DNA of 64,000 nucleotides from Oscillospiraceae bacterium (GCA_017509485.1 JAFWPP010000032.1:55961-119960), one strand, 5' to 3'. Counted from the stretch's first letter, positions 24,966-41,338 are shown. Notes: generated by a model not told the origin, from the letters alone. Program-made: numbers and translations.

Positions 24966-25057
24966 GTGGTTACACCTCCTATGGTAGAATATGCTCAACA
25001 GCTGTGAAACAGCCGCAGCGAGTGAAATCAAGAGCCTTTTTGACTCATACGGCATAT

Positions 25058-25087
25058 ATTATAGCCTGAACAGGGGGGAAATGTCAA
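25058..25087 (-). promoter_or_regulatory. Putative sigma-A promoter of rpmH
   Basis: Minus strand: TTGACA, 18 nt, TATAAT, about 90 nt upstream of rpmH. Confidence 0.55.
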
Positions 25088-25146
25088 GAATTATTTTTTC
25101 CTTCCGCCGCCCGGGGGAAAAACCGGGCGGCGGCACGCTCCCGTTC

Positions 25147-28100
25147 TCAAACGGAACCGGGGTCATCCTCCTCTTCCCGCAGCAGCTGCTCCAGCCGCTC
25201 CAGATGCTTGAGGGCGTCGAAGCTGGAGCCGCGGCCTTCCTCGCCGGCGCGGGAGAGGGTGGTGGGGTCGAAGACCCCCGTGGTGGTCAGCGGCTCCCGG
25301 GCGGCGGTCTCCCCGACCGGCTCCGGCCGGGGCGCGGACTCCCGGAGCGTCTGCTCCGGCGGCCGGACGGGCTCCGGGACAGGCGGCCGGTCAGGCGCCT
25401 CTCCCTGCTGGGCGGCGGACTTGCCCGTATCCCAGGATTGGGTCAGATCCATCCGGGGCATGGTGGTGAAGGCGTCCGGGGGCGGCATGGGCTCGGCGGC
25501 GGGCGGCGCATCCGGATCCGGCTCGTCGACGCCCCGGCGGGGATCCGCCAGCTTCACGGGGAGCTTGACGATGGGGGGCCGGGAGAAGCGGGTCAGCAGA
25601 GCCACGATCAGGAAGGCCAGAAAGCCCGCCAGGGAAATCACGCTGATTTTCAGCCCCAGGGCAAAGCCCGGAGCTTCATAGTCCAGGGCGATGGCGTGCA
25701 GGCCAGGCTCCAGATGGACGGCGATCATGGCGTCGCCCAGGGGGGTGATCCGGCGGGCCTCCCCGTCCACGGTGAGTCTCCAGCCCTCGTCGGCGGGAAT
25801 GGAGAGGTAGAGCAGGCTTGGCTCATGGACGCGGACGGCGCCCTCCACGTGGGTGTCGGTGACCTCGGTGGGGATCATGGAGCCCTCGCTCAGCTGCCCA
25901 TAGGCCTGATCGAAGAGACCGGTGCGGAAGAGGGCGGCGCCCAGGGTGACGCTGCCGGTGGTGTCGCTCTTTTTGGCGCGGTAGCGCAGGCTGATCTTGT
26001 CTCCCACGGAAAAGGCGCCCATGCAGCGGTTGTAGCCGTAGCTGTCGGACCAGGTGTACTGCCGCTCCCCGTTGAGGAAGAAGGTCACGTCGCTGGTTCC
26101 GGAGCCCTTGGAATACACGCAGAGGGTCCCGTCGGCGGGCATGACGAAGCTGGCCTCCACATAGTTGTCGTCGTTGCAGACACCCTTGACCTGGAAGCCG
26201 GTGGAGCTCTTGCCGCTGAGCTCCGCGGTGCCCACGGCCTTTACGTCGGAGATTTTTACGTTGCTGTAGAGGGGCTCTTCGATGCCGGTCATCTCCCGGA
26301 ACAGGCGGTTGAGCCGGTCAAAGGGAATGCCGGAATTCTGGGACGCGTCGTATTCCAGCGCGTTGTCGTTCACCAGGAAGCCCAGGCTCAGATAGGCCTT
26401 GTTCTCCAGCAGCAGCACCTCGCCCTTCCGGGCCACCTGGCGGAAGTAGAGGGTGTCCAGATTCCGCCCGTTGCGGTCGATCAGATATTTGACGCCCAGC
26501 AGCAGATTGGTGAAGGGATCCGCCTCCTGGTAGACGTAGCGATTGCCCGCCACGGAGGCCGCCATGCCGATGCTCTGCAGGAAGGCGGAGACCCGGCTGT
26601 TGGCGGCGGAGGAGAAGACGGAAACACCGTTGTAGCCCAGCAGGGTCCCGTCGTTGAGGGTCTGCTTCATGGCCACCTCGGCCCGCCAGAGATCCACAGT
26701 CTCGCTCTCCCGCTGCTGCATGATCTCCACGATCTCCTTGCTGTTCTCCTTTTTGGTGGGATAGTAGGAGGAGTCGGTGAAGCCGATCTTATTGACGCCC
26801 AGGGCCATACAGCCCAGGGACTCGCAGAGCATGCAGAAGCAGAGGCTCAGCACCAGCAGCTCCTTACGGATGACGCGGAAGGCGTAGAGCAGCAGCACCG
26901 CCAGCGCCAGCAGCGCAACGGCGGTGGTCGTCAGAACCACCAGCTTTTCCCCGGAATGGATGACGCAGTAGAGCAGCAGCGTGACGGGAACGATCAGCGC
27001 CAAGGCCCGCCATTTGGGCAGATGATCCAGCTCCGTATAGGCCCGGAATGCCATAAAGATCACCGTAAAGGACCAGAGGAAGCTGAAGCGGTAGGGCAGC
27101 ATATTGGGGAAGTGCAGGCCGTGCCAGAGATAATCGAGGGTACGGAAGAGAAAGCTGTTGGCAAAGAACAGCAGCAACAGCACAGTAAAGATCCGCTCCC
27201 GCCGGGGTATGCGCTTACAGAACAGATAGCAGGTCGCCAGGATCAGGGTAAAAAAGCCGCAGAAGATGTTGGGCAGGCCCTCCATGGTGGTGGGCTTGGT
27301 CAGGGTCCCGGCGTTGGAAAGCACGTCCCGGATGCCCTGCAGCGGGACGCGGAAGGAGGAGAAGAAGGCGCCGACGTAGCCCAGACGGAGGCTCAGCAGG
27401 GCCTCATGGGCGCCGATCCAGCTGGGATAGGTCACAGACTCTCCGGTGAATTCCGGCACCTGCTTGCCGAAGAAGGCGTACAGATCCGCCACCTTGCCCT
27501 TGGCGATCAGCTCGATGCCGGCCTGGTGGGTCATCTCCGGGATTTTGACGATGTTCATCGCGTAGGCGTTGGGAAATTTGTTGACGGCGGAGGAGGTGGC
27601 CTGCAGGCCCAGATAGGCGGGAACCGTCAAAAACGCCGTCATCCCCAGCGCCACCAGCGTAAAGACGGCAATCCGCCAGAAGCGGGTCCAGAGCCCCGCC
27701 AGATCATCCCAGTTGACGACGTGCCAGCCGAGGAACAGCAGCAGCACGAAAATACAGACAAACAGGCCGATGTAATAGCTGCAGTAAACCGACATCGCCA
27801 GGCTCACCACATAGAGCACATAGCGGCGTTCCCGCATCAGCTCAAAGGTCCCCAGCGTCACCAGGGGCAGCAGAGCCACGGTGTCCAGCCAGATGGCGTT
27901 CCAGTAGTAGCCCATCAAAAAGGCGCAGAAGGCGTAGGCCGTGGAAAACACCGCCACAGCAAGCTCCTCCCGCCCGAAGGTCTTCCGCAGGAAGTGGGCG
28001 CAAAACAGCCCCGCCAGGCCCAGTCGAACCAAAACCATCAGATTGTACCAGGGCATCACAAGGCCCTCCGGCAGCAGGACCGCCGGGAGGTTCAGCGGGC

Positions 28101-28428
28101 TCGCCAGATAGTATGCAAAGAGGGAAAGGTAATTGGTCCCCATGCCCGTGGTCCAGGAGTGGAGCAGGGAGTTTCCGTTCTGCAGCCTGGTCCGCAGATC
28201 CAGATAAAAGGGATAATACTGGTGCCACTGGTCGTGGGCCAGGATCATCCTGCTGCCGAAGGGGATGACGCCGCAGCAGGCCCAGACCACGCCCATGATC
28301 AGCAGCGGCAGGAAAAAGGCGGTCAAATACAAATAGCGGGCCTTCCGCGGGCGGGAGAGAAAACCGCCCGCGGCATAGAATCCCCTCAGGGATTTCCGGG
28401 CCGCAGATTGGATCGTCATATCGGTCAC
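25147..28428 (-). CDS. YfhO family membrane glycosyltransferase-like protein with a Pro-rich C-terminal tail
   Basis: 1093-aa polytopic ORF. The N-terminal region (ILAHDQWHQYYPFYLDLRTRLQNGNSLLHSWTTGMGTNYLSLFAYYLASPLN) is YfhO-like. It lies 18 nt downstream of the GH2 gene. Confidence 0.85.
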   Translation of the reverse strand: MTDMTIQSAARKSLRGFYAAGGFLSRPRKARYLYLTAFFLPLLIMGVVWACCGVIPFGSRMILAHDQWHQYYPFYLDLRTRLQNGNSLLHSWTTGMGTNYLSLFAYYLASPLNLPAVLLPEGLVMPWYNLMVLVRLGLAGLFCAHFLRKTFGREELAVAVFSTAYAFCAFLMGYYWNAIWLDTVALLPLVTLGTFELMRERRYVLYVVSLAMSVYCSYYIGLFVCIFVLLLFLGWHVVNWDDLAGLWTRFWRIAVFTLVALGMTAFLTVPAYLGLQATSSAVNKFPNAYAMNIVKIPEMTHQAGIELIAKGKVADLYAFFGKQVPEFTGESVTYPSWIGAHEALLSLRLGYVGAFFSSFRVPLQGIRDVLSNAGTLTKPTTMEGLPNIFCGFFTLILATCYLFCKRIPRRERIFTVLLLLFFANSFLFRTLDYLWHGLHFPNMLPYRFSFLWSFTVIFMAFRAYTELDHLPKWRALALIVPVTLLLYCVIHSGEKLVVLTTTAVALLALAVLLLYAFRVIRKELLVLSLCFCMLCESLGCMALGVNKIGFTDSSYYPTKKENSKEIVEIMQQRESETVDLWRAEVAMKQTLNDGTLLGYNGVSVFSSAANSRVSAFLQSIGMAASVAGNRYVYQEADPFTNLLLGVKYLIDRNGRNLDTLYFRQVARKGEVLLLENKAYLSLGFLVNDNALEYDASQNSGIPFDRLNRLFREMTGIEEPLYSNVKISDVKAVGTAELSGKSSTGFQVKGVCNDDNYVEASFVMPADGTLCVYSKGSGTSDVTFFLNGERQYTWSDSYGYNRCMGAFSVGDKISLRYRAKKSDTTGSVTLGAALFRTGLFDQAYGQLSEGSMIPTEVTDTHVEGAVRVHEPSLLYLSIPADEGWRLTVDGEARRITPLGDAMIAVHLEPGLHAIALDYEAPGFALGLKISVISLAGFLAFLIVALLTRFSRPPIVKLPVKLADPRRGVDEPDPDAPPAAEPMPPPDAFTTMPRMDLTQSWDTGKSAAQQGEAPDRPPVPEPVRPPEQTLRESAPRPEPVGETAAREPLTTTGVFDPTTLSRAGEEGRGSSFDALKHLERLEQLLREEEDDPGSV

Positions 28429-28446
28429 CTCATTCAGGGATAGGGA

Positions 28447-30282: not shown

Positions 30283-30619
30283 GATTCGGATTTGTCGGGA
30301 TGCCTTCCCCTTGGGGGGGAAGGTGGCGCGAAGCGCCGGATGAGGGGAGGTATCGACGACAGAGCGCCCCCCATCAACGAGCATTGAACATGCAGCGCCC
30401 CTCATCCGTCATCCGGCTTCCGTGAGACGCCGGATGCCACCTTCCCCCGAGGGGGAAGGCTTTGCGGAGAGCAATCACCGTAGGGGCCGAACTCGAAGAG
30501 TCACGAATGTATGCCTACATCGGCCCTATCCCGTATCGGTGTGGGGGCCGATGTGGGCATCGGCCCCTACGGGCGTTTTCGCAACATCCCTACAAATCCC
30601 GATTTCTGCAGTTATCATA
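30283..30619. repeat. Compound palindromic repeat element, copy B
   Basis: REP arms at 30480-30526 (interrupted by a 21-nt insert at 30491-30511) and 30545-30570. The conserved module at 30303-30400 and the flanks match the reverse complement of copy A. An extra ~75-nt two-hairpin module lies at 30400-30475. Confidence 0.85.
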
Positions 30620-30656
30620 CACCTTAGACGTCGAAAAAACAAGCTCGTTCAAAAAA

Positions 30657-30690
30657 ACACGCGCCGTTTTGCGGCGCGTGAGGAAATCGC
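30657..30690 (-). terminator. Intrinsic terminator of the upstream membrane-protein gene
   Basis: Minus strand: CACGCGCCGC-aaaa-CGGCGCGTG followed by TTTTTTT. Confidence 0.6.
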
Positions 30691-30794
30691 ATCCCGTTCC
30701 CGGGTCTCTATCTCTGGCTTATAGGATGTGGAGAAAAGAACAAATTATTCTGTTTTCAAGTCGCGCCGCGAAAAACCATGCGCTTTTTCGTTTG

Positions 30795-31616
30795 TCATTC
30801 TGCGTTCTGTGTTTCAGCTTCCGCTTCCTGCTCCGGTTCGGCGGGAGCTTCTTCTGTCTGCACCCGTTCCCGCAGCAGCTCCAGGCCTGCGTCGGCGCAC
30901 CAAAGGGCGACGCCCAGCAGCAGCACCAGATCCGCCAGACTGTCCTGCAGGCGCAGGAAGTAATCCGGCACGGACATGCAGGCAAAAACGCCGGTGCTCA
31001 GCCCAAAGAGTACGGCGCTGCGGCGGTGTCCGGCCTCCAGAGGGAAGCCGCAGAGCAGCATCATCTCCACCATGGCGCAGGTCCAGGCCAGCAGCAGGGG
31101 TGTGATGTGGATCACCAGGGGATCGTGGCTCCAGACCCGGAAATAGAGGATCAGCAGAGCCCCGGTACAGAGGGCCGGCAGCAGCCGCAGCCAGAAGAAA
31201 TGGGGGCCCCGCTCCGCCGTGACGGCGGTGAACAGCATACAGAAGCCCGCGCCGATCCCGGCGAAGGCCGTCAGGCGCTGCGCCAGATCCGGGACCTTCT
31301 GCCCGTTCACAAGGGTCAGCGCGGCGCCCAGGATCACCAGGATCGCCGCGGCCATCTTGCAGCCTGTGCTGACCGGATGCTGGGTGAAGCAGCGTTCCGT
31401 CCCCGGCAGGCGGTTAAGCCGCAGCGAAAGCAGGCAAAGGACCGCGAAGACGCAGACGCAGAAAAAGACCGTCAAGGGCAGCACAGGGCTCCCCTGCGGA
31501 AGCAGGCCGTTCTCCTGAAAGGCGGTCTTCAATGTAACGATTCGCAGCGCGGTCAAGGCCGCCGCGCAAATCGGCGCCGCCCATCGCAGCGCACCGGCAG
31601 CTCGCGTATGCTTCAT
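30795..31616 (-). CDS. Hypothetical polytopic membrane protein with an acidic C-terminal tail
   Basis: Start at ATG 31616 (MKHTRAAGALRW). About 8 hydrophobic helices. No family recognised. Confidence 0.6.
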   Translation of the reverse strand: MKHTRAAGALRWAAPICAAALTALRIVTLKTAFQENGLLPQGSPVLPLTVFFCVCVFAVLCLLSLRLNRLPGTERCFTQHPVSTGCKMAAAILVILGAALTLVNGQKVPDLAQRLTAFAGIGAGFCMLFTAVTAERGPHFFWLRLLPALCTGALLILYFRVWSHDPLVIHITPLLLAWTCAMVEMMLLCGFPLEAGHRRSAVLFGLSTGVFACMSVPDYFLRLQDSLADLVLLLGVALWCADAGLELLRERVQTEEAPAEPEQEAEAETQNAE

Positions 31617-31683
31617 GTTCGATCCCTCTTTTGTTTTTTCTGTATTATAGCACCGACCCAAAGGGCTTGTCAATTCTCATTTC

Positions 31684-32199
31684 TCAGGGATCGTCCTCCG
31701 CCAGGACCAGGCTCAGGCCGTCGGTCCGCAGCAGTCCCTCCGCCCTGGCCAGGGCGGCGTTTTCCAGCAGACGAAAGCGGCCCAGCTCGGTTTCCCCCCG
31801 GTACAGGCTGTATTGCCCCGGGACCAGGGGCCCCAGCGCCGCGGCGCCTCCGGCGTCGGTTGAGATCTCCTCCAGGGGACAGCCCTCGGCGTCGCAGAGG
31901 AACAGTCGGCCCTTCACCGGCGCCTCCAGCCGCAGGGCCACGGAAAAGCGTCGGGGCGCCTCCTCCGCCATCACGGGGACTGCCGCCTCGTCCTCGCTGA
32001 AAAAGACCTCCTTTTCCGCCGCCCCCGTCCCCTCGGCGCGGGCCTCGGAGGCAAACGCGGCCCTGGCCTCAGGCGCTCCGCTCCCGCTCCCAGCGTCCCG
32101 ACGGACCGGCGGTCGGGTCTTTGCAAATACGGTGGCGCTCAGCACCAAGACGCCGAGCACCGCCCCGATCCAAGCCAGCCGTATGGATTCGTTTTTCAT
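31684..32199 (-). CDS. Hypothetical signal-anchored protein
   Basis: MKNESIRLAWIGAVLGVLVLSATVFA anchor. RBS AAAGGAGA. No family recognised. Confidence 0.6.
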   Translation of the reverse strand: MKNESIRLAWIGAVLGVLVLSATVFAKTRPPVRRDAGSGSGAPEARAAFASEARAEGTGAAEKEVFFSEDEAAVPVMAEEAPRRFSVALRLEAPVKGRLFLCDAEGCPLEEISTDAGGAAALGPLVPGQYSLYRGETELGRFRLLENAALARAEGLLRTDGLSLVLAEDDP

Positions 32200-32280
32200 A
32201 TTCTGTCTCCTTTCCGTTGTTGGCTCCAGTATAGCGCAGACAGGAGACGGATGCTGTCGATGCGTGGATACGCCCGGAAA

Positions 32281-32373
32281 AATTCGGATTTATCAAGTGA
32301 AAAGGCGCAAGGTTCCGGGGATCTGCTGTCTTCCGCCTTGAGCCTTGCACCTTGGCGCTGCAAATCCCGAATT
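32281..32373. repeat. Possible core-less relative of the palindromic elements (outer inverted repeats only)
   Basis: AATTCGGATTT (32281-32291) and AAATCCCGAATT (32362-32373) form the same outer inverted repeat seen around the REP doublets. No GTAG arms lie between them. Confidence 0.35.
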
Positions 32374-32376
32374 GCG

Positions 32377-32405
32377 TTGACTTTTTTGCAATTATTCTGT
32401 ATGAT
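32377..32405 (+). promoter_or_regulatory. Putative promoter of the YibE/F gene
   Basis: TTGACT, 17 nt, TATGAT. Confidence 0.6.
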
Positions 32406-32433
32406 TAAGAAAAAAGCAAGCGGAGGTGGCCCT

Positions 32434-33645
32434 ATGAAAAAAAGCACGACCGAAGCGTCAGCCCCGGAACGAAAAAGACGTCTGCCCGCCTGGCTGCCGC
32501 CGGCTCTGATTCTGCTGGTTTGCGGCGCGATCCTTCTGTATCTGTTCCTGAGCGCCCGGGAGGGCGAGATCTACAATCCCTCACGGCTGCAGAGCGAGTT
32601 CGTGACCGTGGAGCAGGCGGAGGTGCTCAACATCTCCTACGACAGCGTGGAGCCCGACCTCAATTCCCCCGACGGCGTGGAAAAGGGCAACCAGCGAGCC
32701 CTGGTCCGTTTGACTTCCGGCGTCTTCACGGGCACGACCCGGGAGCTCTACTACATGATCGGCTACTTCGTAGGACCGAAGCTGGCGGCGGGCGATCGGA
32801 TCACGGTGCTCCAGATCCGGGACGAGGACAGCGGCGAGCTGCAGACAATCAGCTACTTCCAATATGACCGGATTCCCGCTGTGCTGTTGGTGATGGGCCT
32901 TTTTGTCCTGGCGGTGCTGCTGGTGGGCGGCAGAACGGGTCTGAAATCCCTGCTGGGTCTGGCGGTGACCGTAGTGGCCCTGATCTGGATTTTCTGCCCC
33001 CTTTGGATGAAGGGCGCGGACCCGGTGTGGCTGGCCCTGGGACTCTGCGCTCTGGTAAGCGTCATGAGCTTCGTGATCCTGAGCGGCTGCTCCAGGAAGA
33101 CCCTCTGCGCCGTGCTGGCCACCCTGGCAGGCGTGGGCCTGGCGGCGCTCTTTGGCGCCCTGGCCCAGCGGATCTGCCGCGTCACCAGCTTTGGGCTCTA
33201 CGACGTAAACGGGGAGATCGCGGAGCTGGTGAACCTCCAGACCCGCGGCTATCCCGTCCGGGTCCACGGCATTCTCACCGCCGGGATCCTGATCGCCTCC
33301 CTGGGCGCGGTGATGGACGTGGCCATGAGCCTGTCCTCCGCCGCGGCGGAGCTGAAGCGGGTCAATCCGGAGATGCGCCGCGGCGCCCTCTGGCGCTCGG
33401 GCATGAACATCGGCCGGGATATGGTGGGCACCATGACCAATACCCTGATTCTGGCCTTCGTGGGCACCAGCCTGGTGACGGTGATTCGTCTTTGGGCCCA
33501 GGGCCCCACCTGGCGGATGCTCCTGTGCTCCACCTATTTCTCCGTGGAGCTGATCGCCGCCGTGTCCAGCTCCATCGGTGTGATCCTGGCGGTCCCCCTG
33601 ACGGCATTGATCGCCGCGGCGCTATACGGACGCGGAAAACAATAA
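32434..33645 (+). CDS. YibE/F family membrane protein
   Basis: Start at ATG 32434, 5 nt after GGAGGTG. An external N-terminal domain is followed by ~6 TM helices with YibE/F-like layout. Confidence 0.8.
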   Translation: MKKSTTEASAPERKRRLPAWLPPALILLVCGAILLYLFLSAREGEIYNPSRLQSEFVTVEQAEVLNISYDSVEPDLNSPDGVEKGNQRALVRLTSGVFTGTTRELYYMIGYFVGPKLAAGDRITVLQIRDEDSGELQTISYFQYDRIPAVLLVMGLFVLAVLLVGGRTGLKSLLGLAVTVVALIWIFCPLWMKGADPVWLALGLCALVSVMSFVILSGCSRKTLCAVLATLAGVGLAALFGALAQRICRVTSFGLYDVNGEIAELVNLQTRGYPVRVHGILTAGILIASLGAVMDVAMSLSSAAAELKRVNPEMRRGALWRSGMNIGRDMVGTMTNTLILAFVGTSLVTVIRLWAQGPTWRMLLCSTYFSVELIAAVSSSIGVILAVPLTALIAAALYGRGKQ

Positions 33646-33674
33646 GCGGTGTTCTTGCGCCGGTTCATGCAAAA

Positions 33675-33712
33675 GCAGAGCGGGAGTCCGGCTCCCGCTC
33701 TGCTTTATTGTT
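33675..33712 (+). terminator. Intrinsic terminator
   Basis: GCAGAGCGGGAG-tccg-GCTCCCGCTCTGC followed by TTTATTGTTT. Confidence 0.7.
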
Positions 33713-33919: not shown

Positions 33920-34747
33920 GTGTCTATCAGCATGAAAAACGAAAGCTTTGATCAAAAGAGAGGCAAATTCGGCACGGAGCGGCGCCCGGAGCGGCCCGAG
34001 GAGCTGGCGGAGGGCCTGATCGAGGGCCGCAACGCCCTGACGGAGGCCCTGAAGAGCGGCCGGACCATCGACAAGCTCTACGTGGCCGAGGGCAGCACCG
34101 ATCGCTCCCTGGCCCGTCTGGCGGCCCTGGCGAAGGAAGCGGGCGCCGTGGTGGTCCCCACCGACCGGCGGAAGCTGGACCAGATGAGCCCCACCGGGGC
34201 CCACCAGGGCGTCATCGCCGCCGTGGCCGCCCATGCGTACGCCTCCGTGGATGATATTCTGGCCCTGGCAGCCGAACGGGGCGAGGCCCCGCTGATCGTG
34301 ATCTGCGACGAGCTCTCCGATCCCCACAACCTGGGCGCCATCCTCCGCACCGCCGAGTGCGCCGGCGCCCACGGTCTCATCATCCCCAAGCGGCGCAGCG
34401 TGGGCCTGACAGCCGTGGTGTCCAAGACCTCCGCCGGAGCGTTGGAATATCTGCCCGTAGCCCGGGTCAGCAACATCGCCAACACCATCCGCGAGCTGAA
34501 GGAAAAGGGCGTCTGGGTCTACGGCACCGCCGCCGACGCCGACAGCGGCCTCTACCGCACGGACCTCACCGGTCCCGCTGCCATCGTCATCGGCAACGAG
34601 GGCGAGGGCATGAGCCGTCTGGTGCGGGAAAGCTGCGACGTGCTGGTGAGCATTCCTATGAAGGGGAGGATTTCCTCCCTCAACGCCTCAGCCGCCGCCG
34701 CGATCCTGCTCTACGAGGCCCTGCGCCAGCGGTCCTCCGGCCGCTGA
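33920..34747 (+). CDS. rlmB: TrmH-family 23S rRNA 2'-O-ribose methyltransferase (RlmB group)
   Basis: SpoU/TrmH blocks (LGAILRTAECAGAHGLI, IVIGNEGEGMS, IPMKGRISSLNASAAAAILLYE) and an N-terminal substrate-binding domain. Start is GTG 33920 or ATG 33932. Confidence 0.88.
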   Translation: MSISMKNESFDQKRGKFGTERRPERPEELAEGLIEGRNALTEALKSGRTIDKLYVAEGSTDRSLARLAALAKEAGAVVVPTDRRKLDQMSPTGAHQGVIAAVAAHAYASVDDILALAAERGEAPLIVICDELSDPHNLGAILRTAECAGAHGLIIPKRRSVGLTAVVSKTSAGALEYLPVARVSNIANTIRELKEKGVWVYGTAADADSGLYRTDLTGPAAIVIGNEGEGMSRLVRESCDVLVSIPMKGRISSLNASAAAAILLYEALRQRSSGR

Positions 34748-34833
34748 ACCCGCACGGCTCCGCCCGGAGCCGCCGCCCGCTCTGTCTTTGCGGACAGGAC
34801 GGGCAATGACAATCGTATGGAGTGCGTTTATCT

Positions 34834-37800
34834 ATGAAAAAGCGCAAGGAAAAACTCAATATCACGCAGCCGGAGACGCCGCGCCCCGTGCCGCAGCCCG
34901 ATCTGGAGCAGCAGTCCGCCGCGGACTTTGCGAAGCATCTGGCCGAGCTGTTCCGCACGGAGCTGGGCGAAGAGGAACTCTTCGCCCAGCCGCCCCGGAC
35001 GGAGCCGGAGCCTTCCGAGCCGGAGCGCTCCCCCGCCTCCGCCGTGTCGGAGCCCGCGGAAGGGCCTGCCGCCCAGGAGCCGGAGCCTCCCGTGGAGGAA
35101 CCGGAGCCTTTGACGGCGGAGCCGGAGTCTCCCCCGGAGGAACCGGAGCTGTTGATGACAGAGCCGGAATCTCCCGCTGCGGAGCCTGCGGCTCCGGCGG
35201 CCGTGGAGCCGGATCCCCGGTCGGAGACCAGGGTTTCCCGGCCGGAGCCCCTCACAAAGAGGCTCTCCGAGGAGCTGCTGCAGGAGCCGACAAAGACGGT
35301 GCTTCCGGCCTTTGATGACAAGCCCTTCATCCCGCCCCAGAAGGATCCCACCCTGGAGGAGCTCTTTGGGCCCATCGGGACGGAGGGCGCGTCGGAGGAC
35401 GGCGAACCGACGGACCGGAAGCTCAGAGAATCGCCGCCCCCGGAGACGGTGCGGGAAGCCGTCGAGACAGCCCCCAGGACAGAGCTCCCGACGGAACCGG
35501 AGCCCGATCCCGAGGCCGCCGAGGCAAAGGTGCCGGAGCATCGTCCGGCCCCGCCCTCCGGCCTGGGAAAGCTCCGCGGTCGGCTGCAGGGCCTCCTGGC
35601 GACGATCCGCCAGGCGACCGCGCCCGCGGAAGACGAGTCGGAGTGGGATGCGCCCGCGCCGGAGCCCGGACTTCCGACAGAGACGACGGAAGACTCCGGG
35701 CCGGAAACAGAGCTCCCCGCAGCGGAGCCCGCGCCCTCCCCGGAAAGCACGCCCAGCGAAACGGAAGCAATCCTTCTGCAGCTCCCCCCACAGGAGACGG
35801 AAGCGGCCGCGCCTGCCGCCCCTTCCGCGCTGAAGATCAAGCTGGAGGAAAGCGGCTTCGCGGCGGAGACCTCGGAACAAGCCGCTGCCGACCGAAAGCC
35901 CTTTGCTCTGACCCTTCAATATGAAGCCCCGGAGCCAGACGCGGAGGCCCGCCCGCAAGTCCTCGACGAACTGTTCCGGGAGGCCCTCTCCGAGCCCCCC
36001 ACGGACAGCCCCGTACCGGAAGAAGCCCCGGCGGCATCCTCCCTGGAGCTGCCGCCCGAGATGCGGGACGAGCTCGCCGCGGAACCCGCGGACCAGAGCT
36101 CCCACGCGCCGGAGCTCTGGGACCCTCACTCCCTGTTCAGTGCGCCGGAGGACGAGGGTCCCCCGCCGCTGACGCCCCTCTCCCGGGATACCACCGGCTC
36201 CCTGCCCTCTCTGGAGGATCTGTTCGGCGTCCTGCCGGAAGCTGAAGCGGAGCCGGAGCCGGAGCCAGAGCCCGAGCTGCGCGTCCGACCCAAGAAACAG
36301 CGCGGCTGGCTTCGGAGCCTGTGGAGCGGCGTTGCCGCCCGTCTGCGCTCCGTCCCGGAGGAGGACGGGGACGAGCCGCTCGAGGAGCCCGGCCCCGACC
36401 TCGCTGAAATCTCCGTGGAGCCCGAGGTCGCCGCCCTGCTCTCAGATTCCGAGCTTGCCGCGGCCTTCCCGGAGTCCGGGCCGATCGATTCGCATACAGA
36501 AACCGCCGCGGCAGAGGTCCCAGCGGAGCCTGCCGCCATCGAAGCACCCGCCGTGTCCGAGGCCGCGGACGCGGCCGCGGAGCCTGCCGCCATCGAAGCA
36601 CCCGCCGTATCCGAGGCCGCGGACGCGACCGCGGAGCCTGCCGCCACCGAAGCACCCGACGTATCCGAGGCCGCGGACGTGACCGCGGAGCCTGCCCCAC
36701 AGCCTGAGACAGCGGAGCCTGCCGCCGAAGAAACGGAAGACTGGGATCCCCTGGCCCTCTTTGGCGGGCAGGCGAAGGACGCGGAGCTTCCCACCTGGGA
36801 AGAATACGTCCGGGCCAGCAAGTCCGCCCAAGCGGGAGCGGAGCCGCCCGCGGCAGAGCCGGAAACAGACGCCCACGAGGCGCCCGCCGCAAAGCCGGAT
36901 GCGGCTGTCGCCGTACCGCCCGCCCCGGCATCTGGGAAGACTCCCGACAAGCCCTCCGCAGACGCCGCGGACGCGCCGCCCCAGGCCCATCCCCCCATTC
37001 AAAGCATGCAGGAGCTGGACGCGTATCTGGCCGAGCTGGGGATCCGCGTAGAACCGGAGACGCCCGCGCCCACGGCGGAGCTCCCTGCTTCAGAGATACA
37101 GACCGCCGCTCCGACGGACACGGCGGCGCAGACCGTCCCCATGGATCTCTCCTCGCCCGCGGCACAGCCCGCCGCCCCGCGGACCCGGGCCCGAAATGCC
37201 CAGGGCAAGGGCGAGGCCCTGACTTTGGAGGACTTCCTGGCTGCCGCGGTCCCCATGGAGGATGCAAAGCCTCCCCAGCAGAAGCCTCCCGTCAAGGAAC
37301 GGGAGCCGGGCCGGAAGAAGGCCCCCGCCGCGGAGACCATCTCCACCGTGCGGGAAAACCCCGACGGCCTGATCCTGGCCCGATCCGACCGCCCGGAGGC
37401 AAAGGGCGAAGCTGGACGGAACGCCAACGACGAGGCCCGCAAACGGGCCCGCGAGGCCGCCGCTCCCGTACCCTCCGCCGACGTTCGGCCCTCCCAGAGC
37501 CCCAAGCTCCGCCATCCGGCCCCGCAGCAGGAGCCGGAACCGATCCCAGAGGAGCCGGCGATCCTCCATCCGGAAGAAGCCTATCGGATCTACGCCAAGC
37601 CCCTGGACGCCGTCGGCTCTCATTTGATCCTCACAGGTCTGTTTACGCTTTTAAGCCTGTTCTTTACCCTGTATCTCTCCCAGCATTGGAGCTTCCTGCC
37701 GGAAATCTTCTCCGGCGGCACCACGGTCTATATCCTGCTGGCCCTGCTGATTGCCATGGTGCTGGTGAATCGGAAGCTCTACTTCCGCCAGTGGCGGAAC

Positions 37801-39177
37801 GAACACGGGCTGCGGCCTGAGCTGCTGATCGGCGTCGCCACCCTCTTCACCGCCCTGGACTGCTTCCCCGCCGCCTCAGCCCTGCGGCCGCCCTTCACCG
37901 TGGTGGTGGGCGCCCTGCTGCTGATCGCCCTCTGGGGGCGCTATGACCGGGGCCTGGGCCTGATTACCACCGTCAAGGTCCTGCGGGCCGAGCAGCTCTC
38001 CGCGGGCGTCAGCGAGGTGCAGGACATCACCAAGGGCAGCCGCGGTCTGATCCGCACCGAGCCGGACGTGGATCAGTTCATGTCCAAGCTGGAGACCCGG
38101 GATCTGACCGACCGGGTGCTGCGAATCTATACCCCCATCGCCCTGGGCGTAGGCTTTGCCCTGACCCTGGCGATCAGCATCTGGCTGAAGCGCTCCTTCC
38201 TCTGGACCGGCGCCTTGGTCTTCCTGGGCAGTGTTCCGGTGACGGGTCTGCTGGCCTTCCCCCGGCTCTTCTGTCTGCTGGCCGGTCGGCTCTCCGGCGC
38301 CCAGGCCGCTCTCTGCGGCTATCACGGCGCGGAGGTATTTGGCGGGGAGCACTCGATCCTGATCGGGGACGAGGACATCTTCCCCGCGGGTTCTCTGACC
38401 CTCAACGGCTTTAAGGTCTACAACGGGAACCCCGATCGGGTGATCGCCTACGCAGCCGCGGCCTGCCGCAGCTCCGGAAGCGCCCTGGATCCGGTCTTTG
38501 AGGATCTGCTGGTGACCCACAACGGCCGCCACTACACGGTGGACAACTTCCGCTTCTACGACTCCGGCGGCATCGGCGCCAGCATCCAGCAGGACGTGGT
38601 GCTGCTGGGCTCCCTGGACTTCATGCGGCGCATGGGCGTTCATATGGACCGGGGCGCCCGGGTGAAGCAGGCGGTCTATATGTCCCTGAACGGAGAATTG
38701 GCCGCGGTCTTCGCCGTGCGCTACGCTCCCCCGGAAAACCTGCGCAAGGGTCTGGCCGCCATCGCGGGCAACCGCCACTTCAAGGGCATCCTGGTGACCC
38801 GGACCTTCCTGGGGACCCCGGGTTTCCTGAAGGCCAAATTCGGCATCCCCACCAGTGCCTTCCACTACCCCTCCACCAAGGAGCGGATCCGTCTGTCCGA
38901 GGCGGAGATGAAGCGATCCGGCGCCCAGGGCGCCATCCTGGCCCAGGACAGCTTCTCGGGCTTCGCCCAGGCAGCCGCCGGCGGTCGGATGCTCCGTTCC
39001 GCCACCCTCGGCGCGGCCATCCTCACGGTGCTGAGCGGCCTGGCGGGACTGGGATTGATGGCCATTCTGGCCGCCCTGCCGGCTACCGAGACCGCGACCG
39101 CTGTAAACCTGCTGCTCTACGCTGCGGCCTGGTTGGCCCCGACCCTGCTGCTGACCGCCTGGGGACGGCATTTTTAG
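34834..39177 (+). CDS. Large membrane protein: ~900-aa Pro/Glu/Ala-rich low-complexity region fused to an 8-TM P1B-ATPase-like module lacking catalytic motifs
   Basis: Single 4.3-kb ORF. The C-terminal ~540 aa show a 4+2+2 TM layout with a large loop. That loop aligns to the P-type ATPase P/N domains, but reads SVPVTGLLAFP where CPC-ALGLATP is expected and ILIGDEDIF where FDKTGTLT is expected. Confidence 0.8.
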   Translation: MKKRKEKLNITQPETPRPVPQPDLEQQSAADFAKHLAELFRTELGEEELFAQPPRTEPEPSEPERSPASAVSEPAEGPAAQEPEPPVEEPEPLTAEPESPPEEPELLMTEPESPAAEPAAPAAVEPDPRSETRVSRPEPLTKRLSEELLQEPTKTVLPAFDDKPFIPPQKDPTLEELFGPIGTEGASEDGEPTDRKLRESPPPETVREAVETAPRTELPTEPEPDPEAAEAKVPEHRPAPPSGLGKLRGRLQGLLATIRQATAPAEDESEWDAPAPEPGLPTETTEDSGPETELPAAEPAPSPESTPSETEAILLQLPPQETEAAAPAAPSALKIKLEESGFAAETSEQAAADRKPFALTLQYEAPEPDAEARPQVLDELFREALSEPPTDSPVPEEAPAASSLELPPEMRDELAAEPADQSSHAPELWDPHSLFSAPEDEGPPPLTPLSRDTTGSLPSLEDLFGVLPEAEAEPEPEPEPELRVRPKKQRGWLRSLWSGVAARLRSVPEEDGDEPLEEPGPDLAEISVEPEVAALLSDSELAAAFPESGPIDSHTETAAAEVPAEPAAIEAPAVSEAADAAAEPAAIEAPAVSEAADATAEPAATEAPDVSEAADVTAEPAPQPETAEPAAEETEDWDPLALFGGQAKDAELPTWEEYVRASKSAQAGAEPPAAEPETDAHEAPAAKPDAAVAVPPAPASGKTPDKPSADAADAPPQAHPPIQSMQELDAYLAELGIRVEPETPAPTAELPASEIQTAAPTDTAAQTVPMDLSSPAAQPAAPRTRARNAQGKGEALTLEDFLAAAVPMEDAKPPQQKPPVKEREPGRKKAPAAETISTVRENPDGLILARSDRPEAKGEAGRNANDEARKRAREAAAPVPSADVRPSQSPKLRHPAPQQEPEPIPEEPAILHPEEAYRIYAKPLDAVGSHLILTGLFTLLSLFFTLYLSQHWSFLPEIFSGGTTVYILLALLIAMVLVNRKLYFRQWRNEHGLRPELLIGVATLFTALDCFPAASALRPPFTVVVGALLLIALWGRYDRGLGLITTVKVLRAEQLSAGVSEVQDITKGSRGLIRTEPDVDQFMSKLETRDLTDRVLRIYTPIALGVGFALTLAISIWLKRSFLWTGALVFLGSVPVTGLLAFPRLFCLLAGRLSGAQAALCGYHGAEVFGGEHSILIGDEDIFPAGSLTLNGFKVYNGNPDRVIAYAAAACRSSGSALDPVFEDLLVTHNGRHYTVDNFRFYDSGGIGASIQQDVVLLGSLDFMRRMGVHMDRGARVKQAVYMSLNGELAAVFAVRYAPPENLRKGLAAIAGNRHFKGILVTRTFLGTPGFLKAKFGIPTSAFHYPSTKERIRLSEAEMKRSGAQGAILAQDSFSGFAQAAAGGRMLRSATLGAAILTVLSGLAGLGLMAILAALPATETATAVNLLLYAAAWLAPTLLLTAWGRHF
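36523..36700 (+). repeat. In-frame 54-nt tandem repeat (3.3 copies)
   Basis: Units start at 36523, 36577, 36631 and 36685 (GCGGAGCCTGCCGCCATCGAAGCACCCGCCGT...). They encode AEPAAIEAPAVSEAADA(A/T). Confidence 0.9.
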
Positions 39178-39208: not shown

Positions 39209-39237
39209 TTGACTTTTTGAGCTTCTTCCTATATAAT
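39209..39237 (+). promoter_or_regulatory. Putative promoter of the EF-G paralogue
   Basis: TTGACT, 17 nt, TATAAT. The -35 overlaps a run of AATTG(A/C)C heptamers. Confidence 0.6.
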
Positions 39238-39295: not shown

Positions 39296-41338
39296 ATGTA
39301 CACTGCGAAGGATATCCGCAACATCGCCCTGCTGGGTCACGGCGGCGACGGCAAGTCCGCCCTGTGCGAGTGCATGCTGTTCAATACCAAGGTGATCACC
39401 CGTCTGGGCAGGCGTGCCGACGGCACCACCGTCTCCGACTTCGACGACGAGGAGAAGAAGAGACAGTATTCCATCAAGACCTCCGTGATCCCCGTGGAAT
39501 ACAACAAGACCAAGCTGAACATTCTGGACAACCCCGGCTACTTTGACTTCGCCGGCGAGGTGGTCCAGTCCCTGCGTGTGGCCGACAGCGGCGTCATCGT
39601 TCTGACCGCCAAGTCCGGCATCGCCGTCGGCACCGAGAAGGGCTGGAAGGCTCTGGCCGACCGGGAGCTGCCCGCTATGTTCTATATCTCCAAGCTGGAC
39701 GAGGAGCACGCCAACTTCTTCGGCACCCTGCAGAGCCTGCGGGATACCTTCGGCGCTTCTGTCGTTCCCTTCACCTTCCCCATCCTCAGCGGCGAGCAGC
39801 CCGTGGGCGTCGTCGATCTGATCGAGAAGAAGGCCTATGACGCCAGCGGCAAGGAGATCGCCCTGCCTGCCGACGCCGAAGAGAAGATCGAAGAGTATAT
39901 GATGGAGCTCAACGAGCAGGTCGCCGAGACCGACGAGGAGCTCATGGAAAAGTTCTTCATGGAAGAGCCCTTCACCGACGAAGAGCTGGCCCGCGGCATC
40001 AAGGCCGGTCTTGCCACCCGCACCATCACCCCCGTGTTCTGCGGCTGCTCCACCTCCGGTCTGGGCGTCAACAGCTTCATGGCCAACCTGGTCAAGTTCG
40101 CCCCCTCCCCCCTGGAGGGCAAGCCCATGGTCACCGTGGACGAGGACGGCAACGAGGGCGAGTTCCAGCTGAACCCCGCCGGCAGCCCCATGGCCTTTGT
40201 CTTCAACACCATGTCCGACCAGTACGGCAAGAACTCCTACTTCAAGGTCATCTCCGGCGACATTGAGGACACCCTCACCGTCGTCAACGGCCGCACCGGC
40301 TCCAACGAGAAGCTGGGCAACACCTTCTTCCCCCGCGGCAAGGAAAACATGAAGACCTCCAAGGTCTGCTGCGGCGACATCGGCGTGTTCACCAAGCTGG
40401 CCTCCGTCCGCACCGGCGACACCCTGGGCCTGGCGGGCAAGGTCGTGAACCTGAAGCCCATGGAGTATGACGAGCCCTGCTACCGCATGGCCATCTACGC
40501 CAAGACCAAGGGCCAGGAAGACAAGGTCGCCGCCGGCCTCGTGAAGCTCAACGAGGAAGACGCCTCCTTCACCTACGGCAACGATCCCGAGACCAAGGAA
40601 ATGATCATCGCCGGCGTCTGCGACATTCACCTGTCCGTCATCATCGCCAAGCTGGCCTCCAAGTACAAGGTCGAGGCCGAGCTCCGTCCCGCCAAGATCG
40701 CCTACCGCGAGACCATCAAGCGGAAGGTCGAGCAGCACGGCCGTCACAAGAAGCAGTCCGGCGGCCACGGCCAGTTCGGCGACGTCTATATCCGCTTCGA
40801 GCATCAGGATGAGCAGGAAGACATGATCTTCGCCGACGAGACCGTCGGCGGCTGCGTGCCCAAGAACTTCATCCCCTCCGTCGAAAAGGGCCTGCGCAAC
40901 TGCGTCAACAAAGGCGTGCTGGCCGGCTACCCCGTGGTGAACCTGAAGGCCACCCTGTACTTCGGCTCCTCCCACCCCGTTGACTCCTCCGATATGGCCT
41001 TCCAGACCGCCGCGGGCATCGCCTACAAGGAGGGCCTGCCCCAGGCCGGCCCCACCATCCTGGAGCCCATCGCCGAGCTGAAGGTCTTCGTGCCCGACTC
41101 CTACACCGGCGACGTGGTCGGCGACCTGAACAAGCGCCGCGGCCGCGTGATGGGTATGGGCGGCGGCGTCATCGAGGCCGAGGTCCCCATGGGCGAGATG
41201 AGCTCCTACGCCATCGACCTGCGCTCCATGACCCAGGGCCGCGGCTCCTACAGCATGAAGTTCGTCCGCTACGAGGAGGTTCCCCAGATGAATCAGGCTA
41301 AGATCATCGAGGAAGCCAAGAAGGACGAGGAAGAATAA
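39296..41338 (+). CDS. Elongation factor G family GTPase paralogue with divergent G motifs
   Basis: 680 aa with five-domain EF-G-like length and blocks. G1 is GHGGDGKS, G3 is DNPGY (Tyr where the catalytic His is normally found), G4 is SKLD. Confidence 0.9.
   Translation: MYTAKDIRNIALLGHGGDGKSALCECMLFNTKVITRLGRRADGTTVSDFDDEEKKRQYSIKTSVIPVEYNKTKLNILDNPGYFDFAGEVVQSLRVADSGVIVLTAKSGIAVGTEKGWKALADRELPAMFYISKLDEEHANFFGTLQSLRDTFGASVVPFTFPILSGEQPVGVVDLIEKKAYDASGKEIALPADAEEKIEEYMMELNEQVAETDEELMEKFFMEEPFTDEELARGIKAGLATRTITPVFCGCSTSGLGVNSFMANLVKFAPSPLEGKPMVTVDEDGNEGEFQLNPAGSPMAFVFNTMSDQYGKNSYFKVISGDIEDTLTVVNGRTGSNEKLGNTFFPRGKENMKTSKVCCGDIGVFTKLASVRTGDTLGLAGKVVNLKPMEYDEPCYRMAIYAKTKGQEDKVAAGLVKLNEEDASFTYGNDPETKEMIIAGVCDIHLSVIIAKLASKYKVEAELRPAKIAYRETIKRKVEQHGRHKKQSGGHGQFGDVYIRFEHQDEQEDMIFADETVGGCVPKNFIPSVEKGLRNCVNKGVLAGYPVVNLKATLYFGSSHPVDSSDMAFQTAAGIAYKEGLPQAGPTILEPIAELKVFVPDSYTGDVVGDLNKRRGRVMGMGGGVIEAEVPMGEMSSYAIDLRSMTQGRGSYSMKFVRYEEVPQMNQAKIIEEAKKDEEE

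Follow-up and report, generated by a model that had tools for sequence, protein, structure and literature searches.

A probable non-pump descendant of P1B-type ATPases with a disordered, motif-bearing arm in Oscillospiraceae

The window analyzed here is a stretch of 64,000 nucleotides from an Oscillospiraceae bacterium (GCA_017509485.1 JAFWPP010000032.1:55961-119960). It carries, at 34834-39177 on the plus strand, to which all features given below belong, a gene encoding a protein of 1447 amino acids (coordinates including the stop codon). The C-terminal ~540 amino acids of this protein very probably descend from a CopA-like P1B-type ATPase, the protein as a whole being a non-pump member of that family. 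Judged from sequence and structural model, it is an apparent pseudoenzyme of the inner membrane with a disordered, motif-bearing cytosolic arm. By descent and fold it belongs to the P1B branch of the P-type superfamily, while none of the features that define membership by function was found.

The relationship was invisible to standard family models. Pfam searches with the full protein and with the core returned nothing significant (best, E1-E2_ATPase, PF00122, E=1.1), NCBIfam gave no match for either, a Pfam search of 23 family members found no match, and a genome-wide search with PF00122 did not recover the gene. A phmmer search of the PDB with the single core sequence was equally negative, and only a family profile succeeded. 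Against PDB sequences, the profile of 29 members placed the Cu-ATPases HMA4 and ATP7 at ranks 1–3 (E 1e-4 to 3e-3), the matches falling into two collinear stretches, MA-M2 and the N/P domain. When 103 family cores were aligned by hhalign with 26 genuine P1B pumps of related genomes, each of which carries CPC and DKTGT, the probability was 99.5% (E 1.5e-21) and the match extended collinearly through 505 columns, spanning MA to M6; local mode gave 98.7% (E 3.7e-16). The family profile also retrieved pumps with DKTGT, CPC, TGES and GDGxND from genomes of other orders, with per-genome E values down to 1.7e-27. Homologue searches returned 44 relatives; an exhaustive search yielded 1865 cluster representatives at E<=1e-3, the weak tail of which may contain genuine pumps, and 453 at E<=1e-30.

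With the family alignment as input, AlphaFold2 (AF2) modelled residues 883-1447 with good confidence (pLDDT 87.9, pTM 0.82). The model showed membrane helices arranged 4+2+2. The loop of ~40 amino acids that follows helix 4 forms a small beta hairpin, and helix 6 is followed by a cytosolic insert of ~220 amino acids, consisting of a Rossmann-like domain into which a beta-rich domain is inserted. An earlier note on this DNA, made from the sequence alone, had described the same helix arrangement with a short loop after the fourth helix; its estimate of ~270 amino acids for the loop after the sixth was slightly too long. When the model was compared with the PDB by Foldseek, the top 13 matches were all P1B ATPases (CopA, ATP7B, HMA4, ZntA), the best being LpCopA (4bbj, E 4e-14), with TM-scores up to 0.51 among the P1B matches. 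KdpB followed below rank 13, with CadA (7qbz) at rank 15 and then P2/P3 pumps. The collinear homology and the shared M/P/N fold identify a P-type protein, and the eight transmembrane helices, including the two extra N-terminal helices MA and MB, together with the ranking of P1B structures above KdpB and the P2/P3 pumps, identify the P1B branch. Resemblance to P-type ATPases, which the earlier note had proposed, is therefore well supported by both profile searches and predicted structure; chance resemblance was ruled out by the Foldseek and hhalign results and by the recovery of genuine pumps with the family profile.

The core derived from a P1B-ATPase comprises residues 912-1447 (37567-39174), as delimited by AF2, Foldseek, hhalign and the PDB profile search. 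Its length is 537–551 amino acids across the 103 members, with all eight helices kept and almost no indels. The segment MA, MB, M1 and M2 (37570-37983; helices 31-67, 80-106, 114-134 and 140-168 in model numbering) is collinear with HMA4 and with the local P1B pumps, and contains the conserved D1009 and R1018-x-P. It is followed by what is left of the A domain, a beta hairpin with a short helix (37984-38103; model strands 175-180 and 188-193), by M3 and M4 (38104-38298, from hhalign column mapping), by the P and N domains (38299-38952, from hhalign and residue frequencies), and by M5 and M6 (38953-39171; model helices 492-532 and 541-564, supported by hhalign and frequencies). What the core retains is the membrane domain with its eight helices and the proline kink in M4, together with the P- and N-domain folds.

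The motifs on which pumping depends have been lost along the entire core. Between M2 and M3 only ~40 amino acids of the A domain are left, and ~100 amino acids including TGES are missing, which appear in hhalign as a large insertion present only in the template. M4 reads GSVPV where pumps have SCPCA, so that both cysteines are lost and the helix-breaking proline is kept (P1135; Pro in 93/103 members). DKTGTLT is replaced by G-D-E-D-I-F-P, which is one residue shorter (local reading ILIGDEDIFP), and K-T-G-T occurs in 0/103 family members. In the N domain, the nucleotide-binding motif SEHPL has become SGSAL (G in 77/103, S in 80/103), and the GxG loop is retained as GGIGA. TGDN reads TRTF here and TRDF in the family consensus; the Lys of HAD motif III is not conserved, and R1351, two residues later, is invariant (103/103). 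The segment of the P domain with GDGxNDxP, ~28 amino acids, has been deleted. The Cu-pump ligands YN and MxxSS are absent from M5 and M6, where no conserved polar residues align with them; N1425, W1433 and P1436 are conserved there. An N-terminal metal-binding domain is common in P1B pumps, though not universal; here, no Pfam HMA match to a ferredoxin-like domain of this kind (CxxC) was obtained, the composition table of the arm contains no Cys, and the N-terminus is disordered.

No TGES, DKTGT, CPC or GDGxND was found in the product, and the catalytic motifs reported missing in the earlier note had not been misread. Since every element of the Post-Albers cycle is gone (DKTGT, the A domain with TGES, TGDN, GDGxND, SEHPL, and the CPC, YN and MxxSS ligands), the sequence indicates that the protein cannot work as an ATP-driven metal pump. 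The description of it as catalytically dead in the earlier note is firm as regards pumping, and the use as an anchor, sensor or channel proposed there is conjecture; a residual phosphatase-like or ligand-binding site may remain at the acidic loop that has taken the place of DKTGT. Two intact P-type ATPases are encoded elsewhere in the same genome, and the 1447-residue protein is an extra, non-pump copy beside them.

Distant branches of the family look more pump-like: SEHPL survives as x-P-L, the GxG loop as PGKG and TGD as T-x-D, and in 5/9 an Asp directly follows the first strand of the P domain. These residues fit descent from a working pump. The branches themselves (L014-L017, L125, L128, L129, L136 and L137, from families of the same order) resemble intermediate stages in the decay of a working P1B pump.

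The gene is evidently real and, on comparative grounds, under selection, because the exact product is found on eight contigs, it is present once per genome, and its position behind rlmB is conserved. The frame is free of stops from 34822 to 39177 (1451 codons). ATG 34834 is the likely start codon, because a GGAG ribosome-binding site read from the sequence lies 10 nucleotides upstream (34820-34823), because homologues of the same genus open with MKKR(K/N)..., identical to the start of the 1447-residue product in the alignment, and because the exact product exists in public collections; the start given in the earlier note agrees with all three. The exact translation was found on 8 public contigs (NCBI and ENA), titled only 'hypothetical protein [Oscillospiraceae bacterium]', and both strings quoted in that note, GSVPVTGLLAFPRLF and HSILIGDEDIFPAGSL, are present in it.

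An assembly or fusion artefact, or a pseudogene, was ruled out: the exact protein stands on contigs from several sources, 20 representatives of the same genus share the MKKR... N-terminal peptide, the long arm and the C-terminal core, the 1451 codons contain no stop, and the in-frame GC content at third positions (GC3) is 0.80. The concern that two genes had been wrongly joined was likewise put aside, as frames of 1100–1813 amino acids in the same genus share the architecture and several independent assemblies have yielded the identical protein. Also rejected was an internal start preceded by an untranslated arm: protein-level conservation extends to the N-terminal peptide and to the peptide islands inside the arm, and every indel is in frame.

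The arm (residues 1-905, 34834-37548) was delimited by composition, charge, GC3 and identity. It is rich in Ala (17%), Pro (17%) and Glu (16%) and strongly acidic, with 192 Asp and Glu against 76 Lys and Arg, which bears out the low-complexity region of ~900 amino acids rich in Pro and Glu that had been noticed earlier. In-frame GC3 is 0.80 throughout and the value for second codon positions is the lowest, the pattern expected of coding DNA in this genome. Identity to homologues of the same genus is 10–25% outside short islands, and 60–89% in the core. The islands conserved within the genus are the N-terminal AADFAKHLAELFRTELGEE, LPSLEDLFG, WDPLALFGG and ALTLEDFLAAAVPMED. The conserved N-terminal peptide AADFAKHLAELFRTELGEEELF (residues 27-50, 34912-34983) aligns with (S/T)AEDFAxHLAAMFRAELGEE at the N-termini of these homologues.

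Two tandem repeats, both in frame, were located in the arm by TRF: one of 42 nucleotides at 35076-35175 (2.4 copies) and one of 54 nucleotides at 36523-36696 (3.2 copies). The latter had been reported as exact; it is real, but its copies match at 95%. One 42-nucleotide unit (14 amino acids, residues 96-109; 35119-35160) is missing from a near-identical public variant, and one 54-nucleotide unit (18 amino acids, residues 564-581; 36523-36576) from two such variants. Because near-identical variants differ by exactly one repeat unit, the length of the arm appears to shift in frame through gain and loss of units. The differences between public variants reflect either copy-number polymorphism among strains or, in individual cases, collapse of repeats by the assembler. 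Arm length ranges from ~100 to ~1200 amino acids among the 103 complete representatives, with a median of 182, and open frames of the same genus reach 1813 amino acids.

A short peptide recurs in the arm. A pattern search found the first copy, TLEELFGP, at residues 173-180 (35350-35373), and further copies at residues 376 (VLDELF), 459 (SLEDLFG) and 797 (TLEDFLAAAV). The pattern [STLV]L[ED][ED][ILFM] was observed four times against 0.08 expected, and [DEAS]LF seven times against 0.48 expected, the latter accounting for half of the 14 Phe of the arm; neither count was reached in any of 20000 shuffles. Homologues of the same genus contain 1–3 copies of DP(S/T)LEE(L/I)FGP, LP(S/T)LEELFG or LTLEDFLAAAV; in short-armed family members the peptide occurs once, at the tip of the N-terminus, as Y(S/T)LE(D/E)IMxEFGGW. 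A strict pattern for the N-terminal motif matched only 10/176 representatives; a looser pattern and alignments were used instead. On this comparison, (S/T)LE(D/E)ΦΦ qualifies as a signature peptide of the family that has been multiplied in the genus of the window.

The distribution of the family was determined with a profile of 23 members that included the distant branches. At E<=1e-35, 146/151 genomes of the order to which the window belongs matched (125/127 of the high-quality genomes), in 30 families and nearly always with one copy. At E<=1e-28 there was no match in 193 genomes belonging to other orders of the class, and in a phylum-wide sample full-length matches were found only in the four genomes of the same order. 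As inferred from the titles of related records, the order carrying the family is Oscillospirales; these titles, of rumen and gut origin, include the names Oscillospiraceae, Ruminococcaceae, Acutalibacteraceae, Faecousia and Avoscillospira.

The head formed by the P and N domains is the most conserved region (identity within the genus 0.7–0.89), and the membrane part is at 0.42–0.75. Residues of the membrane and interface that are conserved include D1009 (81/103), R1018 (65/103), N1425 (82/103) and W1433 (100/103). Pfam and NCBIfam contained no matching model, no paper or model describing this bacterial family was found, and literature searches on dead or pseudo P-type ATPases in bacteria and on FUPA families returned nothing relevant, in agreement with the earlier note, which could not assign the protein to a described family. 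The protein belongs to an unnamed family of rlmB-linked pseudo-P1B proteins, of which it has all four features: the degenerate core, an acidic D/E-Φ-F loop, the peptide-bearing arm and rlmB upstream.

The acidic loop G-D-E-D-I-F-P (residues 1178-1184, 38365-38385), placed by residue frequencies and hhalign at the site of DKTGT, is strongly conserved: D1179, D1181 and P1184 are each present in 100/103 members and F1183 in 98/103, and distant families retain an Asp at 1178 or 1179 plus D/E-Φ-F. The degenerate head probably performs no chemistry at all. In a reading that we consider improbable, the protein would be a membrane-bound HAD-type phosphatase or phosphotransferase, or a receiver-like phospho-acceptor, with D1179 as nucleophile and D1181 as general acid/base. 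Motif I of HAD phosphatases is classically D-x-D, and its second Asp, at +2, makes a water-activating Glu from outside unnecessary; with D1181 in this position, loss of the TGES loop of the A domain could be tolerated. The conservation of D1179 and D1181, of T1322 (84/103) and R1351 (103/103) at the places of HAD motifs II and III, and of T-x-D at the TGDN position in distant families would agree with such an enzyme. The register of the alignment bears on this reading: hhalign and the hydrophobic pattern of the strand put the variable residue 1178 (G here; G, R, T, S or E in the family), and not D1179, on the nucleophile position, but the posterior confidence of hhalign at the loop is low, and together with a loop one residue shorter than DKTGTLT this leaves D1179 possible as nucleophile. 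Further points argue against it. Motif IV (GDGxND) has been lost by deletion, and D1372, the acidic residue closest to it, is Asp or Glu in only 66/103; the loop varies in distant members (DGSFIFP, SEEEFLG, DNEIFS); the protein of the window reads T-R-T, with Thr instead of Asp; and the Pfam Hydrolase (HAD) model gave no match even at E<=10.

A tentative reading of the whole protein, which we hold at somewhat less than even odds, is that of a scaffold or regulator anchored in the membrane. Binding would take place at the highly conserved cytosolic P/N head, where the acidic loop D1179-x-D1181-Φ-F-P and R1351 lie in the pocket once used for phosphorylation. The acidic arm would display the signature peptide (one at the tip in short-armed relatives, four here), which might either recruit a cytosolic partner or dock in cis on the head, and the arm would act as a fast-evolving spacer whose length changes by in-frame tandem repeats. 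A scaffold role is read from the anatomy of the protein, and several observations weigh against it. In an AF2 model of a full-length short homologue, the tip peptide was not confidently docked (a helix at residues 29-35 had pLDDT <50); the same model showed a confident basic helix immediately before the membrane. A residual catalytic site, or one for a small ligand, would equally explain why D-x-D-Φ-F-P, T1322 and R1351 are so strongly conserved. Finally, the membrane domain is conserved too (P1135, D1009, N1425, W1433), and could still bind or conduct something.

The last point leads to a further alternative, in which the membrane domain would have kept the ability to move or sense an ion or small molecule, as a passive channel, uniporter or sensor, with the head acting only as gate or relay. 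The retention of the M4 proline, which unwinds the helix at the canonical binding site, in 93/103 members, the conserved polar residues (D1009, R1018, N1425 and W1433) and the eight helices within a core of nearly constant length are all compatible with transport or sensing. This is nevertheless very unlikely, as the P1B metal ligands CPC, YN and MxxSS are all gone, the membrane part is less conserved than the head (0.42–0.75 vs 0.7–0.89), and no energy source or partner channel is encoded nearby.

The gene directly upstream (33920-34747) encodes an rlmB-type SpoU rRNA 2'-O-methyltransferase (Pfam SpoU_methylase, 6.9e-44, and SpoU_sub_bind). In practically all loci whose flanks are long enough, distant families included, rlmB occupies this position in the same orientation. 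A very strong intrinsic terminator (33672-33706; 16-bp stem with 9 GC pairs and a T tail) follows a YibE/F-family gene at 32251-33645. Because this terminator precedes rlmB, and none was found between rlmB and the gene of the 1447-residue protein, the two look like one co-transcribed operon with its 5' boundary at this point.

Downstream, at 39296-41338, lies an EF-G paralogue with five EF-G Pfam domains, present at this position in most Oscillospiraceae loci; both neighbours named for checking in the earlier note thus proved to be conserved. A strong sigma-70-like promoter (TTGACT-17-TATAAT, 39209-39237, 11/12 consensus matches) is situated just past the stop codon of the 1447-residue protein, and such a near-consensus promoter suggests that the EF-G paralogue forms a separate transcription unit. 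The promoter falls within a run of AATTG(A/C)C heptamers. In switch II (DNPGYFDF) the paralogue has Tyr at the place of the catalytic His, and its P-loop is unusual as well (GHGGDGKS). The other two EF-G-like genes of the genome are canonical and read DTPGHVDF in switch II. The paralogue may be a GTPase-impaired factor. Further upstream, two ORFs at 24991-28443 (1150 amino acids) and 30462-32000 (512 amino acids) had no Pfam match at E<=1e-5; these are putative gene calls, as ORFs on the opposite strand overlap them in GC-rich DNA.

RlmB and the His-less EF-G paralogue hint, by guilt by association, at a link with the translation machinery. It is conceivable, at long odds, that the neighbourhood constitutes a lineage-specific translation hub at the membrane, in which the dead pump would be the anchor, the several (S/T)LE(D/E)LF peptides of its long acidic arm would capture ribosomes, the EF-G paralogue or ribosome-maturation factors, and the old pocket would act as a switch. 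If this holds, the P-type ATPase fold would here have acquired a new use, and the gene would be order-defining and possibly essential in Oscillospirales.

P-type ATPases are textbook pumps, and neither the literature searches nor the Pfam and NCBIfam models yielded a described bacterial family that keeps the whole P-type fold while dropping catalysis. The present family is a natural experiment on the uses that a P-type scaffold can have without ATP. Since the gene is single-copy and near-universal in an order of dominant gut and rumen bacteria, its product probably does something central, and the identity of its partner could bring to light a cell biology peculiar to this lineage, whose members are difficult to study. 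The gene is also a candidate marker for the order, and the arm provides a clear example of a disordered region that evolves by repeat expansion yet preserves a short peptide motif.

Among known systems, the P1B pumps LpCopA (3RFU/4BBJ), ZntA (4UMW), HMA4 (8Q73) and ATP7B (7SI3) share with the protein the topology, the kink in M4 and the folds of the P and N domains. They differ in having DKTGT, TGES, TGDN, GDGxND, SEHPL, CPC, YN and MxxSS, all absent here, where the A domain is a stump of ~40 amino acids and ~28 amino acids of the P domain are deleted. In place of an N-terminal metal-binding domain there is a disordered acidic arm with short peptide motifs, and the gene lies behind rlmB rather than in a cop or czc operon. 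With HAD phosphatases of the DxDx(T/V) type the protein has in common the Rossmann-like fold of the P domain, a D-x-D by the first beta strand, and the Thr and Arg near motifs II and III. Unlike in those enzymes, the acids of motif IV are missing, the register of D-x-D is uncertain, no Pfam HAD match was obtained, and the fold is set in a P-type frame of eight transmembrane helices.

The closest parallel to a P-type scaffold that persists after losing its catalytic residues is the P4-ATPase module of certain alveolate ATPase-guanylate cyclases (P4GC), in which the Asp of DKTGT and the Glu of the A domain are altered or lost in some lineages with the scaffold remaining under selection (PMC13466520); P4GC of Cryptosporidium 'essentially lacks this motif' (PMC13466520). 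The degenerate module of P4GC suggests a non-pumping regulatory or structural role. P4GC is, however, eukaryotic and of P4 (flippase) ancestry, is fused to a cyclase output domain and is degenerate in some lineages only, whereas the family described here is bacterial, of P1B ancestry and without an enzymatic output domain, and its degeneration extends to the family as a whole.

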